Positions 3,681 through 40,129 of a stretch of DNA of 42,733 bases are shown piece by piece. Within the stretch, counting starts at the first letter, position 1. Every line of letters starts with the position of its first letter. A program made the position numbers and the translations under genes. The notes under the pieces were generated by a model, which saw nothing but the letters and a program-made list of their open reading frames with translations, made no database searches and was not told where the DNA came from. The stretch is from an uncultured Anaerolineaceae bacterium (GTDB taxonomy: Bacteria > Chloroflexota > Anaerolineae > 4572-78): contig CAYZQQ010000001.1 of assembly GCA_964480075.1 (NCBI GenBank), positions 1 through 42,733 on the forward strand, read 5' to 3'.

Positions 3681-3767
3681 AGATGCACCTCTATTGGTTT
3701 TATGGATTCTGGATAATTCCCCATTGCTTGCGACAAATTCGGAATGACAAATTATTTCCTTGAAACA

Positions 3768-4121
3768 TTGTCATTCCCGCGCAGGCGGGAATCCACATTA
3801 GATTATTTTTTCGTACAAATCATCCCAATTAGGGTTCATTGCCTCAATGAGATTAATTTTCCACTGTCTATTCCATTTTTTCAATTGTTTTTCACGAGTC
3901 AGCGCAACGTTGATTTCAGGTGTTTCTTCAAAATAGACCAGCTGATGAACCTGATATTTTTTGGAAAGGCTCTCTGCCAAGTCATTTTTATGTTCGTAAA
4001 TACGCTTTACCAAATTATTGGTTACACCGATGTACAATGTGCCGTTTTTCTTGCTGGCTAAAATGTAAACAAAATAAGTGTTCATTTTTTTTCTTGGATT
4101 CCCGCCTTCGCGGGAATGACA
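3768..4121 (-). mobile_element. AT-rich GIY-YIG cassette bounded by inverted 27-nt palindromic repeats, inserted between fdhB and fdhA
   Basis: tgtcattcccgcgcaggcgggaatcca (3768-3794) matches the reverse complement of tggattcccgccttcgcgggaatgaca (4095-4121), differing by one base in the loop. The interior is about 35% G+C by hand count, against about 58% in a 60-nt sample of fdhB. Confidence 0.6.
3798..4085 (-). CDS. GIY-YIG nuclease family protein (UPF0213/YhbQ-like), 95 aa
   Basis: MNTYFVYILASKKNGTLYIGVTNNLVKRIYEHK... carries the GIY-YIG signature. I prefer the ATG at 4085, because the ORF-track extension to 4127 reads through the flanking repeat. Confidence 0.85.
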   Translation of the reverse strand: MNTYFVYILASKKNGTLYIGVTNNLVKRIYEHKNDLAESLSKKYQVHQLVYFEETPEINVALTREKQLKKWNRQWKINLIEAMNPNWDDLYEKII

Positions 4122-4123
4122 AA

Positions 4124-5878
4124 TCATAATTTAAATTCATCTGCGAAATTCTTCAGCGCCGATTGCATCGGGATGGCGACAGATTGCCCCAGTCCGCAGA
4201 ACGAAGCGTATTTCAACGTATCTGCCATTTGAGTCAATATGTCCGCATCCGCCGCGCCGATGTTTTCCGCGCGCATGTTGTCCAGCAGTTGGCGGGTGCG
4301 CCGCGTGCCGATGCGACACGGTGTGCATTTGCCGCACGATTCGCTTTCAAAAAAGTGCAGCAACTCGCCGAGCAAATCCACCGGCGACATACTTTCATCG
4401 GCGATGAGAAACGCGCCTGCACCGAGACCGATACCGTGTTCCCGCGCCGAAGCATAATCGATGGGAATATCGAGAAAATCGCGGTTGACGATGGTTCCCG
4501 CCGCGCCGCCGGTCAGTGCCATGTTGAAGGTCGAACCGGCTTTCATCCCGCCGCCAAAATCGTCAATAATTTGGCGCAGGGTCAACCCGAAGGGGGCTTC
4601 AAACAGCCCGGGTTGATTCACATGCCCCAGCAGCGTGTAAAGTTTTGTGCCGGCGCGCCCATCGCCGAGGCTGAGTTCGTTGTACCATTGTGCCCCATTC
4701 CGCAGAATGGCGGGCACGTTGGCAAAAGTTTCCACATTGTTGACAACCGTTGGTTTGTTGCGAAAACCGCTGACGGTGGGATATGGCGGGCGCATGCGCG
4801 GCTCACCGCGCCGCCCTTCCAACGATTCCAGCAGCGCGGTTTCTTCGCCGCAGATGTACGCCCCTGCGCCGCGATGGACGTGAATATGGAACGAAAAATC
4901 GCTGCCGGCGATATGGTCGCCGAGTTTACCGTATGCCATTGCCTGTTCAATGGCGAGTTCCAGCACATCCGCCTGTTCGGCATATTCGCCGCGAATGTAA
5001 ATATAGCCCTCGCGCGCGCCGATGGCATATCCGGCAATCGCCATTCCTCCCAACAGCAGATGGGGATTGCTGTCCATCAGCACGCGGTCTTTGAAAACCA
5101 GCGGCTCGCTTTCATCGGCATTGCAAACGATGTAACGGGTTTCATCGGCGGCTTCGGCGACAAATTTCCATTTCATACCGGTGGGGAAGCCCGCACCGCC
5201 GCGCCCGCGCAGATTCGAGTCGGTCACAATCGTCACCACATCCAGCGGCGAGCGTTCCAGTGCGGCGGTCAAACCCTGATATGCACCGTGCGCCAGCGCG
5301 GTTTCAATGTTGCGCGGGTCGATTTTATCGGTATTTGCCAGCAAAACGCGCGTTTCACCGGGACGGGATTGGGTGTAGGTATGTGGATGTGCGGGGGGAT
5401 TTTCGATGGAAGATTTGAGGTCGGCGGGGTTGAGGGTGATTTGAGCATGGTCATTCACCAGTGCGGCGGGGGCGTGGTCGCACAAGCCGAGACAACTGCT
5501 GCGTTCCACCGTCCACCCCGCACCGAGCGCAGTTTTTAGCGTGGTCATCACATCTCCGGCACAGTGCATCCAACACGCGGGACCATCACACACGCGGATG
5601 ATGTTTTCGGTGGTGGGCTCGGTGTTCAGCATGGTGTAAAAGGTCGATGTGCCATACATATCCGCAAAGGGAACGCCCATCGCGTGCGCGGTATGCGCCA
5701 CCGATTTTCTATCCAGATACCCTTCAGCCTGTTGAAGTTCCACCAGCGCTGGAATGACAGATTCGGCATCGCCGCGATATTTTTTCAACACAGCAGCGAT
5801 CGCCGGGAACGGTGGTTCATTCAATATGTTTCCTTGATAGGTTTGCTTTTGGCGCGATTTTCGGGATCGTTTCGCCAT
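4124..5878 (-). CDS. NAD-linked formate dehydrogenase beta/diaphorase subunit: NuoE-like 2Fe-2S domain fused to a NuoF-like FMN/NADH/4Fe-4S domain
   Basis: The 584-aa ORF has an N-terminal thioredoxin-like 2Fe-2S domain (CDGPAC...CLGLC), GRGGAGFPTG, and ESCGKCTPCR. A strong SD (AAGGAGG) precedes the ATG at 5878. Confidence 0.85.
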   Translation of the reverse strand: MAKRSRKSRQKQTYQGNILNEPPFPAIAAVLKKYRGDAESVIPALVELQQAEGYLDRKSVAHTAHAMGVPFADMYGTSTFYTMLNTEPTTENIIRVCDGPACWMHCAGDVMTTLKTALGAGWTVERSSCLGLCDHAPAALVNDHAQITLNPADLKSSIENPPAHPHTYTQSRPGETRVLLANTDKIDPRNIETALAHGAYQGLTAALERSPLDVVTIVTDSNLRGRGGAGFPTGMKWKFVAEAADETRYIVCNADESEPLVFKDRVLMDSNPHLLLGGMAIAGYAIGAREGYIYIRGEYAEQADVLELAIEQAMAYGKLGDHIAGSDFSFHIHVHRGAGAYICGEETALLESLEGRRGEPRMRPPYPTVSGFRNKPTVVNNVETFANVPAILRNGAQWYNELSLGDGRAGTKLYTLLGHVNQPGLFEAPFGLTLRQIIDDFGGGMKAGSTFNMALTGGAAGTIVNRDFLDIPIDYASAREHGIGLGAGAFLIADESMSPVDLLGELLHFFESESCGKCTPCRIGTRRTRQLLDNMRAENIGAADADILTQMADTLKYASFCGLGQSVAIPMQSALKNFADEFKL

Positions 5879-13918: not shown

Positions 13919-14052
13919 AGGTAGTTGATAATTTCGTGCGCCCGTTTCTATTTTTTAGCAGGCAACACGCCAACAAAAAAACAAGCAACGGAGAAACCCG
14001 TGGTTCTCACAATCGCCTGCCTTTTCGTTAGAGTAATACCAATTTCATAAAC

Positions 14053-14322
14053 TTACTTACGCAAACCAAGTCGTGGTAGCAGTGTTTTGTATCGTTGATA
14101 ATCTTTGCGGCTCAGATACGCCAGTAAACGGCGACGCTGCCCAACCAGCTTCAGCAACCCCCGCCGTGAACCTTCATCGTGCTTGTGTTGCTTCAGATGT
14201 TCAATCAGCCCGTTAATTCGGTGAGTTAACAGCGCAATTTGCACCTCGGGCGAACCTGTATCCTCTTCTGCCAGCTGAAAATCTTTAATAATTTGCTCTT
14301 TTATTTCTTTTGTGAGTGACAC
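14053..14322 (-). CDS. rpsO: 30S ribosomal protein S15
   Basis: 89 aa, ...[29 protein letters not shown]...; GTG start with a GAAAGGA SD. Confidence 0.95.
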
Positions 14323-14417
14323 GGCAATTCCTTTCTATCCGTCGGGCGACCAACAGAAACACACTCCGTTGGAACCCCAAGTGTCTTGGATAACTAGAGT
14401 TTATTTCAACAGCGTGC

Positions 14418-14446
14418 ATTATAGCACATACAGCCAACTTAGGCAA
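14418..14446 (-). promoter_or_regulatory. Candidate extended -10 promoter for rpsO-pnp
   Basis: On the minus strand: TTGCCT, a 17-nt spacer ending in TGc, then TATAAT. It lies about 95 nt upstream of the rpsO GTG. Confidence 0.45.
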
Positions 14447-14495
14447 ATGTTTTCACTTTTTAATGCACTGTGTTAAAATCTGAATGGAGGTTTTT

Positions 14496-15269
14496 ATGCA
14501 ATTTGACGTCTTTACGCTCTTTCCGGAAATGTTTGCGGGACCCTTTGCCCACAGCATCATTCGGCGCGCGCAGGAAATGAATTTGGTGGATATTGCGCTG
14601 CACAATATCCGCGATTATGCGCTCGACAAACACCACATGACCGACGACACCCCGTATGGCGGCGGCGGCGGCATGGTGATGAAACCCGACCCCGTTTTTC
14701 ACGCGGTGGAATCGGTACTGGGGACAGACGTGCCGCCAGAAGGATACATCCCGAATGGCACGGCGGAACGCCCGCCGATTATTTTGCTTTCGCCGCAGGG
14801 ACGGGTTTTTACCCAGAAGGTTGCGGAGGAACTGGCGCAATATCCCCGGCTGATGTTCATCTGCGGGCGATATGAAGGCGTAGACGAGCGGGTGGTGCAG
14901 TATCTCGCCACCGACCGGATTTCCATCGGCGATTATGTGCTGTCCGGCGGGGAAATCCCCACGATGGCAATTGTGGACGCACTCATCCGGCTCATCCCCG
15001 GCGTGCTGGGCGACCCCAACGGCGCGGCAAACGACTCGCACTCAACGGGATTGCTGGAATATCCGCATTACACCCGCCCGCCGGAATTTCGGGGGCACGG
15101 TGTGCCGGACATTCTGCTGTCGGGACATCACGCCAAAGTGGACGAATGGCGGCGGCAGCAAGCCCTGCTCCGCACACTGAAACATCGCCCCGATATGCTG
15201 GAAACCGCCCCGTTGACCGATGCGGACAGGAAGTTTTTGGAAAAAGTGGTCAAAATAGAACGCAGATGA
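14496..15269 (+). CDS. trmD: tRNA (guanine37-N1)-methyltransferase
   Basis: [13 protein letters not shown]..., with the YGGGGGM and [11 protein letters not shown] motifs. GGAGG lies upstream of the ATG at 14496. Confidence 0.95.
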
Positions 15270-15470
15270 CGCTGATAACACAGATTTCGTATGTCATTCT
15301 GAAAATTCGCTGCGCGAATTTTCCGGAATCCACAGCACAAACACCGGATTCCCGCCTGTGCCCGTTGTTTGGGTGCTTTCGCGGGAATGACATTTCTTTT
15401 TTTGAAAACTGTCCGGTGGCTGGATTTTATCTGTGAGAATCTGTAATATCCGTGTCATCTGTGTTCCGAT
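15254..15470. repeat. Composite nested repeat: outer 'aatagaac...acagat' inverted repeats enclosing a gene-less pair of tgtcattc/gaatgaca hairpin units
   Basis: The left arm (15254-15293) matches the reverse complement of the right arm (15422-15470) at about 26 of 31 positions. The inner units are at 15292-15332 and 15345-15392. Confidence 0.65.
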
Positions 15471-15522
15471 AAAACTGTCAGGTAGATAAAATTTCCAATT
15501 AACCAACCCAAAGGAGAAACCT

Positions 15523-17151
15523 ATGTTCACACACGGAGGCGAATTGGTCGGGCGCGCGCTGGCAGCGCAGGGTGTCGATACACTTTACACGCTGTGCGGC
15601 GGGCATATCGCGCCGATTTACGAAGGCTGCCTGAACCACGATATCCGCGTCATCGACTTTCGGCACGAGCAAGCTGCCGCCCACGCCGCCGATGCGCACG
15701 CACGGCTCACGCGCAATATCGGCGTGGCAGCAGTCACCGCCGGTCCCGGCGTCACCGATGCGGTAACAGCGGTGGCGAATGCATATCAAGCCCGCAGCCC
15801 GCTGATTCTGCTCGGCGGGGCGGCGCCGCTCAGCACCAAAGGGATGGGCGCATTGCAGGAAATGCCCCAAACCGACCTATTCAAAACCTTCACCAAAGCC
15901 AGTTTCACCCTCACCGACACGGCGCAAATCCCCGCACAGATGGCGGATGCTTTCCGCACCGCGCTGAGCGGTCGCCCCGGACCGGTTTTCATCGAACTGC
16001 CGTTTGATGTGTTGTTCAACGCCGTTGACCCACCCGAAATTTCCCCCAAAATCGAAATCGACCCCATCGAACCGGAAACGGGCGCGCTGGACAAAATTGC
16101 CACCCTGTTGCGTGATGCCCGCAAACCCATCATCATCGCCGGCACGCAGGTTTATTGGGATGGCGCCAGCGCCGCCCTGAAAAATCTCACCGAACAAACT
16201 GCCATGCCGGTGTTCACCAACGGTGCGGGGCGCGGCACACTGCCGATGGATCATCCCCATCTGTTCAAAGCCACCCGTTCCGCCGCGCTGAAAGAAGCGG
16301 ATGTGGTGGTGCTCATCGGCACGCCGCTCGATTTTCGGTTGAAATACGGGCGCGACTGGAACCCGAACAGCAAACTCATTCAGGTGGAAAATGATGCCGC
16401 CGAATTGAACCACAACCGCACCGCAGATGTCGCGCTGGCAGCCAATGCCCGGCTGGTGCTGGAAGGGCTTTCGGCGCGGCTGGGCGGGGTTCGTTTTGAT
16501 GATTGGCTCAGCCAGATGCAGGAAATGGAAGGCGAAAAACAGGCGAAGCTGGCGCAGTGGGCAGCGCTGGACGATTCGCCGGTCAACCATTTCCGTTTTG
16601 GTGCGGCAGTGAACAATTTTGTGGACGAAAACACCCTCGTCATCGGCGATGGCGGCGATATTGTGAGCGCCACTGCCAAAGTGCTGAATATCACCCGCCC
16701 CGGTCAGTGGCTCGACCCCGGACCGTTGGGCTGTCTGGGTGTCGGTGCGCCATTTGCCATTGCCGCACAGAATCTCTATCCCGATAAAAAAGTGCTGATT
16801 GTAAACGGCGATGGCTCTTTCGGGCTGAACGGGTTCGAATTTGACACCGCCATCCGCTTTAATTTGCCGATTGTGAGCATTGTGGGCAACGATGCCGCGT
16901 GGGGGCAGATTCGCGGCCCGCAAATCCAAATGGTGGGAAAAGAACGCGCCATCGCGTCATCGCTGGCGGCGACGCGGTATGACAAAATAGTGGCGGCAAT
17001 GGGCGGCTACGGCGAACATGTGGACAATCCCGCCGAGATTGAAGCCGCGCTGGCACGGGCGTTTGCCAGCGGAAAACCGGCGTGCATTGATGTCGCGCTC
17101 GACCCGGAAGGGATGCAGAAAACCGGCGCCAGCTCGCCGTATATTGTGTGA
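15523..17151 (+). CDS. Thiamine diphosphate-dependent enzyme (acetolactate synthase / oxalyl-CoA decarboxylase / 2-hydroxyacyl-CoA lyase family)
   Basis: The 542-aa ORF has the N-terminal Pyr domain ([12 protein letters not shown]...[11 protein letters not shown]) and the ThDP-binding GDGSF...N motif. SD is AAGGAG. Confidence 0.8.
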
Positions 17152-30230: not shown

Positions 30231-30306
30231 AAAAGCACGTCCAATTTTACGATGGTTAAGAAATTGGTGGTGGTTATTTTTGACTGCTAGAATAAATCAT
30301 CCAATT

Positions 30307-30380
30307 TGTCATTCCGTAAATTTCCGAAGGAAATTATCCGGCAACAGAATTTATGGATTCCCGCTTTCGCGGGAATGACA
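30307..30380. repeat. Gene-less pair of tgtcattc/gaatgaca hairpin units (same family as the GIY-YIG cassette termini)
   Basis: The left unit is 30307-30340 (stem aaatttcc-gaa-ggaaatt). The right unit tggattcccgctttcgcgggaatgaca (30354-30380) matches 4095-4121 except for one loop base. Confidence 0.65.
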
Positions 30381-30442
30381 TCACTGACGTTACACAGTTT
30401 GAAATCTGACAAAGTCAAGATATGTCCGGTTGTAATTTTCCT

Positions 30443-30466
30443 CCCACCCCCAAATTCGGGGGTGGG
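30443..30466. repeat. G/C-tract hairpin
   Basis: cccaccccc-aaattc-gggggtggg, a 9-bp stem. A related ccccacccc/ggggg tract lies at 17186-17218. Confidence 0.5.
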
Positions 30467-30577
30467 GAATATCCGGATTTTTAGGTTTTTGACAACAATT
30501 TCAGTCATTGCAATTTTGTCAAATCCGTGACTGCGTAAGGTGAGTGACATCAGTCAATTTGAGCCACTACCAAGAAA

Positions 30578-39948: not shown

Positions 39949-40129
39949 ATTCCCCGCAGCAAATTGAGGCGTATCAAATTATCATTTCGGGAATTTTCAC
40001 AGGGAATTATCCGGAATCCATCGTGGTGACGATGGATTTCCACCTTCGCACCCGCAACAGGCGGGAATAACATACGCGGCAAGCCACGGGGAATTAAATC
40101 CGCAACTCATTAACAACCTGAATTCGGGG
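39949..40129. repeat. Cluster of degenerate attcccgc/gcgggaat-type hairpin repeat remnants
   Basis: attccccg...cgggaat (39949-39994), ccggaatcca (40011-40020), cccgc-aacag-gcgggaataaca (40051-40072), cggggaatt (40087-40095) and gaattcgggg (40120-40129). There is also an 11-bp hairpin at 40013-40041. Confidence 0.45.

Follow-up and report, generated by a model that had tools for sequence, protein, structure and literature searches.

A heterotypic doublet of Ssn-related hairpin motifs, probably copied as a unit, downstream of trmD in an Anaerolineaceae genome

The 101-base intergenic element at positions 15292-15392, downstream of trmD in the 42,733-nucleotide stretch of DNA analysed here (the window), belongs to a published family, the Ssn nucleases with their NTS/SRM repeats (PMC11893778), which went unrecognised in the initial annotation of this DNA. 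We consider it probable that the element, which is non-coding, combines two hairpins of the Ssn-related motif (NTS/SRM type) and is copied as a doublet, as a member of a REPIN-like population whose partner is a single-copy nuclease. The comparisons given below directly support the assignment to the family, the doublet architecture, the maintenance of the hairpin, the spread through intergenic DNA, the gain and loss from species to species, and the association with ssn.

The element is located between trmD (14484-15269; Pfam tRNA_m1G_MT) and the gene for a ThDP-dependent enzyme (15523-17151). The TrmD protein is 79-89% identical to TrmD of Anaerolineaceae and Chloroflexota MAGs, in which the trmD-ThDP synteny is conserved. 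The repeat resembles neisserial dRS3, but a Neisseria (dRS3/NIME) source was rejected on the 89% identity of TrmD to its Anaerolineaceae counterparts. Inspection of the open reading frames of the window revealed no credible gene inside the element, and an Rfam search of 14000-17000 gave no relevant match. The boxes, stems and coordinates initially assigned to the pair proved correct to the base. The outer 8-mers TGTCATTC (15292-15299) and GAATGACA (15385-15392) enclose the inner boxes GGAATCC (15325-15331) and GGATTCC (15346-15352), with 14 nt between the boxes; the separation of 12 nt given earlier corresponds to 15333-15344, the spacer obtained when the units are counted as full family members of 41 and 48 nt. 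In the left unit, gaaaattcgc (15301-15310) and gcgaattttc (15314-15323) form a perfect 10-bp stem around tgc, and in the right unit cccgc (15351-15355) and gcggg (15381-15385) flank a 25-nt loop (15356-15380). As single-stranded DNA, the left unit is predicted to fold into a hairpin of -9.9 kcal/mol (z -3.6) and the right unit into one of -8.3 kcal/mol on the motif strand and -9.8 on the other. Profile searches with nhmmer assigned the left unit to the B type (36.8 bits, E 9e-9) and the right unit to the C type (65.6 bits, E 1e-17) of the repeat family described below. Full-length copies of the element, at 79-85% identity, are present on at least 11 other contigs. The 8-mer TGTCATTC occurs 428 times genome-wide. 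In the window there are 10 occurrences where 1.6 would be expected, a count reached in none of 100 shuffles and well above random expectation. The family members found in the window are collected in Table 1.

Table 1. Units of the repeat family, and the ssn gene, in the window
Feature	Position	Strand	Details
Degenerate B-type unit	3701..3750	-	just outside the ssn cassette; 26.4 bits
A-type unit (canonical NTS/SRM), ssn cassette border	3767..3797	+	TGTCATTCCCGCGCAGGCGGGAATCCA
ssn, 95-aa single-domain GIY-YIG nuclease, presumed cognate enzyme	3801..4085	-	Pfam GIY-YIG, E 2.7e-17
A-type unit, opposite ssn cassette border	4095..4123	-	inverted partner of the 3767-3797 unit
Convergent doublet, complete	15292..15392	.	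B unit and inverted C unit, 12 nt apart; ends TGTCATTC / GAATGACA as terminal inverted repeats
B-type unit (long-hairpin SRM variant)	15292..15332	+	TGTCATTC-TGAAAATTCGC-TGC-GCGAATTTTC-CGGAATCCA
Variable spacer	15333..15344	.	4-16 nt among copies, unconserved
C-type unit	15345..15392	-	canonical A hairpin (ATTCCCGC/GCGGGAAT) + conserved 21-nt insert following the GAAA loop
Sister doublet, B + inverted A	30306..30382	.	one of 113 B+A copies
Solitary B-type unit	39982..40022	+	

The genome containing the window (G000) is a 3.87-Mb, 639-contig Anaerolineaceae (Chloroflexota) MAG. Its repeat units were collected by exact-box extraction, followed by nhmmer searches with four profile HMMs. This gave about 328 hairpin units sharing the frame TGTCATTCC…GGAATCCA, a lower bound, like all copy numbers given here, in a fragmented assembly where 16 of the units are no more than 60 bp from the end of a contig. 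Four types were distinguished: the canonical type A (26 nt, consensus GTCATTCCCGCGAAAGCGGGAATCCA, 127 copies); A2 (31 nt, 12 copies); B, a long hairpin with a 15-bp stem (40 nt, consensus GTCATTCCGGAAATTTCCGCAGGAAATTATCCGGAATCCA, 165 copies); and C (47 nt, 24 copies), which is A with a conserved 21-nt loop insert. TGTC…ATTC and GGAAT-CC are present in all four types as well as in both units of 15292-15392. The census altered the reading of two features of the pair. The stem of the left unit, initially taken for an unrelated replacement, is a variant of the B type of about 165 copies and shares its stem core AAATT…AATTT; the expanded loop of the right unit is shared by the C-type subfamily, of which 20-24 copies are found in the genome, 22 of them in doublets with B. 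As a separate observation, 15 of 106 A units have the loop TTTC, not GAAA, relative to their asymmetric flanks, indicating a palindromic core flipped within its frame.

The units are organised predominantly in pairs. Convergent pairs with a spacer of 4-16 nt make up 142 of the 183 clusters, and 40 units are single. All 142 doublets are heterotypic, with B joined to A (113), C (22) or A2 (7), and like was never paired with like; the element at 15292-15392 is one of the 22 B+C doublets. This pairing rule does not agree with the earlier suggestion that the pair is the GIY-YIG cassette minus its gene, given that both ends of the cassette are of type A. The doublet termini extend to GTCATTC…GAATGAC with AT immediately outside each end (AT-GTCATTC…GAATGAC-AT). 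Flanks unique on either side were found for at least 81 of 134 doublets, which indicates independent insertions and not segmental duplications; the remaining doublets are embedded in larger repeats. No target duplication beyond the possible AT was detected at any offset in an all-offset search, the sole signal being an artefact of one larger repeat, and the joined flanks of the doublet had no uninterrupted copy within its own genome. When gene calls were approximated by crude ORFs, only 16 of the 142 doublets (11%) fell within an ORF, although 89% of the genome is ORF.

Several other repeats were observed around the doublets. The doublet at 30306-30382 is directly followed by a separate repeat of about 165 bp (window 30380-30547), copies of which occur at 72-86% identity on contigs C58, C52, C47 and C228 and in the related genome G006; in the plsC-LysM spacer, at least three families of repeats form a mosaic. 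Two B(+)…C(-)/A(-) pairs, at C98:4590-5067 and C136:7160-7402 of G000, have long 'spacers' of 381 bp and 167 bp without a long ORF, and may be doublets that received an insertion. Y1 (RAYT-like) transposase genes of G000 carry REP-like hairpins of their own (CCCCGCCGCTTGCGGCG…; C245:3700-4600 and C120:6400-6650). About 15 doublets are flanked by motifs similar to these hairpins (GCTGCGGGGTATCAAAAT … GCAAGCCACGGGGAAT), a similarity which suggests that Ssn-type doublets are nested in a second, RAYT-type repeat family.

The published counterpart of this family is known from Neisseria, where about half of the dRS3 copies are a longer, oriented motif named NTS (CGTCATTCCCGCGMAVGCGGGAATCYRG; Chenal et al., Nat Commun 2025, PMC11893778). 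SsnA of Neisseria meningitidis, a 94-aa single-domain GIY-YIG nuclease, binds NTS as single-stranded DNA only and makes a strand-specific cut a few bases 5' of the motif; Ssn is inactive on RNA, and 'Ssn-related motifs' (SRM) flank the homologues of Ssn in different phyla (PMC11893778). The base of the palindrome and the C following it matter for binding and the preceding GTC for cutting, and activity of SsnA was abolished when the palindrome was changed with the hairpin kept (PMC11893778). The family in G000 resembles NTS/SRM in its frame, GTC-ATTCC…GGAAT-CC, in its hundreds of intergenic copies, in the single small GIY-YIG gene bracketed by the motif, and in belonging to a system that spans phyla. 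The A unit is nearly identical to NTS, its consensus TGTCATTCCCGCGAAAGCGGGAATCCA differing from the published motif at the first and last positions only. Both units of 15292-15392 are inverted repeats within the 20-50-nt range of the published motifs, are predicted to fold as single-stranded DNA hairpins, and have the asymmetric flanks, GTC before the palindrome and C after it. Unlike NTS/SRM as published, the main form here is a heterotypic convergent doublet, and the host is a Chloroflexota MAG. The B units, with their 15-bp stem, and the C units, with their 25-nt loop, fall outside the published SRM pattern, HGTCWYN(0-2)YYVSBRHN(0-5)WNVSBRGN(0-2)RNCYNB, which misses both units at 15292-15392 because of its limits on loop and stem length. 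Of the family units in the window, it matched just two, at 3769-3796 and 30353-30380. Genome-wide it gave 99 matches, compared with about 17 in block shuffles, and of the four unit types it catches only A.

The boxes of the pair are, as proposed initially, those that also border the GIY-YIG cassette, where two A units, A(+)/A(-), flank ssn. No other gene in the genome is bracketed in this way. The product is a single-domain GIY-YIG protein of the size typical of the Ssn family (cd10448, about 95 aa), with the Pfam domain covering residues 4-78 of 95, and it has about 8000 homologues of about 95 aa, thousands of them at 93-96 aa. A tblastn search of the genome with Ssn gave a single match, and the assembly yielded no other close Ssn homologue; sequence searches of NCBIfam and PDB returned no family and no structure. 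Two other candidate partners were considered and rejected. There was no second Ssn paralogue that could match the B type, the other GIY-YIG matches being UvrC and a 256-aa fusion, and the Y1_Tnp genes on C245, C403 and C19, candidates for a RAYT-type (Y1 transposase) partner, had no units nearby.

Whether the hairpin is maintained by compensatory change was determined with a gapless alignment of 69 distinct 38-nt B sequences, scored against the 15-pair hairpin. The partner cells were paired in 94.7% of cases compared with 89.0±0.5 in shuffles, and 55 cells were changed on both sides compared with 19±3.2, a number that none of 500 shuffles reached. Sliding the partners by one column, as a control, lowered pairing to 45-63%. 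The variation is found in the inner stem, with pairs 12-26, 15-23 and 16-22 each showing 2-4 Watson-Crick types, and the outer stem and boxes are nearly invariant. Since inheritance within sub-lineages inflates these cell counts, independent evidence was sought in sister species. The amplified inner stem proved to be different in each: AAATTTCC/GGAAATT in G000, AATTTCCC/GGGAAAT in G002 and AAATTCGC/GCGAATT in G005. In a variant named B', both boxes are altered together, from ATTCC/GGAAT to ATACC/GGTAT, and the A partner keeps the standard boxes; 29 exact matches were found in G002, G003 and G005, and one more in G010. The change of the B' boxes without a change in the A partner means that pairing is kept within the unit and not across units, a result more consistent with intra-unit hairpins than with a long cruciform. 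These results bear out the original proposal that the hairpin is conserved through compensatory replacement of its stem.

Comparison with related genomes revealed gain and loss of doublets between species. The trmD-ThDP spacer is without the doublet in G001, G002, G004, G005 and G006, all of the same genus, and in further Anaerolineae MAGs. A joined-flank search with 12 other doublets showed that the doublet at C5:8895-8969 is common to G002 at the orthologous site and absent from G003, G004, G005 and G006; at the C85 and C39 loci, relatives have an uninterrupted sequence. Orthologous intergenic DNA at the trmD, C85 and ssn loci is too diverged to be aligned to a base-precise empty site. A second, unrelated inverted repeat with repeated CACAGAT motifs surrounds the trmD doublet (window 15264-15287 and 15424-15466; CAGATGAC…GTCATCTG). 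Its right arm has about 15 copies in G000 and more in G001, G002, G003, G006, G009 and G015, and the doublet appears to have landed in the loop of this outer repeat, because in G002 the outer repeat follows trmD and no doublet is present. At C5:8880-9060 the inserted block, as judged against G002-G006, consists of the doublet plus about 64 bp, and the ribosome-binding stretch CTACCYTTC, which precedes the start of the downstream gene, flanks the block on either side, leaving that gene with a ribosome-binding site.

The ssn cassette lies between two genes of a formate-dehydrogenase operon in G000 and G002 (69% aa identity), and G005 and G006 have an empty site at this locus. The orthologous site of G003, a repeat-rich genome, is a run of about 100 N (C107, ~4871-4970). 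Exact counts of B and A units were 142 and 159 in G002, 48 and 44 in G005 (67% complete), and 33 and 21 in G003; G010 had 2 B and no A, and G027 had none. DNA searches gave few repeat matches in G001, G004 and G006, the exact-pattern counts covering the other genomes. Repeat abundance tracks the clade with ssn at the formate-dehydrogenase locus. Two other Anaerolineae ssn genes (72-75% identical) are also bracketed A(+)/A(-), in unrelated operons, which fits the NTS-ssn-NTS layout (PMC11893778). In G027, A2 units alternate with an unrelated hairpin in direct tandem arrays of 80-bp period, which, set against the doublets of G000, makes the doublet one among several packagings. At one G027 locus (C1014, 1150-2250) two ssn copies were observed inside such arrays, with GTGCCCGA…TCGGGCAC as the second hairpin, in a NIME-like layout unlike the G000 doublets. 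Box-conserving variants were also seen in other Anaerolineae, one with an unrelated inner hairpin (CCCCCGCCTTTGCGGGGG; locus L128, 1892-1936) and one with a compensatory stem (ATCCCTGC/GCAGGGAT) at the end of an ssn cassette (locus L129, 9957-9982).

Among known repeat systems, REPINs with their RAYT partners (Bertels and Rainey 2011, PMC3116915; PMC3337134) come close in organisation. As in REPINs, hairpin repeats are inverted around a short spacer, doublets far outnumber singlets (142 vs 40), master sequences and a single-copy, repeat-flanked partner gene exist, and the copies are intergenic without target duplication. Unlike REPINs, the arms always differ in type and the partner is a hydrolytic GIY-YIG nuclease, not an HUH/Y1 transposase; no repeat-flanked HUH/Y1 transposase gene was found, the Y1 genes of the genome being unassociated with units. 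The NIME of Neisseria, built of dRS3 and RS elements (PMC1797815), are similar in that A units satisfy the dRS3 formula ATTCCCN8GGGAAT (97 copies), are intergenic and lie in some cases in mosaic repeat regions. They differ in consisting of long dRS3 arrays with RS elements of 50-150 bp between, whereas isolated doublets with spacers of 4-16 nt are the form here, and neither unit of 15292-15392 fits the formula, the right one having a 25-nt loop and the left one lacking CCC/GGG. Palindrome-associated elements derived from IS200/IS605, which move by single-stranded DNA 'peel and paste', likewise have ends that are single-stranded DNA hairpins with asymmetric flanks and make no target duplication; in contrast to them, the hairpins here are inverted on opposite strands and not both on one, and there is no HUH transposase.

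The position of the element, 23 nt past the trmD stop and followed by a T-run (TTTCTTTTTTT), raised the question of whether it acts mainly at the RNA level: terminator or mRNA-stabilising functions have been proposed for some REP elements, and the doublet might be a stem-loop of this kind after trmD. The predicted fold of the doublet transcript is indeed stable (-43.5 kcal/mol, z -4.4). However, the T-run is outside the family, since the flanks differ at other copies, and the gene-oriented GC-rich stem with T-run of an intrinsic terminator was not recovered, a terminator scan making no call at the doublet. Across the genome, doublets showed no orientation bias with respect to co-directional genes (34:32) and lay between divergent genes about as often as between convergent ones (17 vs 16). 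G·T and A·C mismatches in B units were symmetric (34 vs 38), giving no sign of selection on one, transcribed strand, and Ssn is without action on RNA (PMC11893778). We therefore regard an RNA-level role as unlikely. The initial annotation had offered selection on a DNA cruciform or an RNA hairpin; maintenance of structure is upheld by the compensatory changes, and the RNA part is left without support by the mismatch and orientation counts.

It had also called the pair MITE-like, and in a loose sense this is apt for a dispersed, gene-less repeat that some species have and others lack at the orthologous site. A classical MITE, with ssn as passenger cargo and with ATGTCATTCC terminal inverted repeats recognised by the transposase (DDE or other) that moves it, would account for the terminal inverted repeats of about 10 bp, for the numerous copies in unique contexts, and for the AT conserved on both sides if this is a 2-bp target duplication. 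Yet no duplication beyond that AT was found at any offset, no transposase gene is bounded by such ends, ssn being the only gene bracketed by convergent units, and the Y1 transposase genes have hairpins of another kind and lack units, all of which makes this origin most improbable. Passive spread of doublets, with the units serving as recombination or integration sites or as substrates for homologous recombination, has a precedent in the dRS3 of Neisseria, which are integration targets, as for filamentous phage integrases, and proposed recombination hot spots in the literature; some doublets also lie inside larger mosaic repeats. We nevertheless judge it very unlikely, as no recombinase is associated with the units, and the strict B plus non-B pairing, species-specific masters and many unique flanks would be hard to produce by passive recombination.

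The explanation we favour, a doublet of Ssn-related motifs copied as such, can be outlined as follows. Each unit keeps the asymmetric frame 5'-(A)TGTC-ATTCC…GGAAT-CCA-3', and, the two units facing each other, each strand bears one sense unit at its 5' end. When the DNA becomes single-stranded, in replication, in repair or as incoming DNA, every unit would fold its own hairpin, and Ssn would be expected to bind the sense unit and to nick the strand a few bases 5' of it. With a sense unit at the 5' end of each strand, the predicted nicks fall just outside both ends of the doublet, on opposite strands. The doublet, and not the single hairpin, would be the unit copied around the genome. We infer that Ssn recognises the units, B units especially, that it cuts at this position, and that it drives or maintains their spread. 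By analogy with SsnA, whose activity was abolished by changes in the palindrome (PMC11893778), the B units may be poor substrates or none. The genome encodes ComEC and DprA, so that import of single-stranded DNA is possible, though genes as widespread as these do not amount to evidence. A counter-point is G005, which has a homogeneous, recently amplified population and yet no ssn found in a genome that is 67% complete. The copying mechanism is missing from this explanation, because a GIY-YIG enzyme hydrolyses DNA and is not known to carry out strand transfer. One tentative proposal, which we hold to be possible and rather doubtful, is that the heterotypic doublet is the replicator of a REPIN-like population with a GIY-YIG single-stranded DNA nuclease as partner in place of an HUH transposase, that nicks on opposite strands outside its ends induce repair synthesis at the nick or gap, and that the master hairpins of each species evolve with their own Ssn.

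The Ssn/SRM system, one year old, is already published, and what we describe is a genuine, once-mobile repeat and not a new kind of system; doublets or REPIN-like units are unmentioned in the Ssn paper (PMC11893778), where this packaging is undescribed. The new elements are descriptive: a heterotypic doublet, B with non-B, that is amplified as a unit, two types of unit beyond the published pattern, species-specific master stems, compensatory change that reaches the boxes, and sites present or absent within one genus. Counts of such families made with the published motif pattern are more than 3-fold too low (99 vs 328). The genus offers a natural experiment, with sister species that have none, few or hundreds of doublets and each its own hairpin variant. 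The A, B, B' and C units are defined substrates for establishing what Ssn reads, the base of the hairpin with its flanks or the whole stem, and the idea of Ssn/SRM as a RAYT/REPIN-like partnership, a speculation in PMC11893778, becomes testable.
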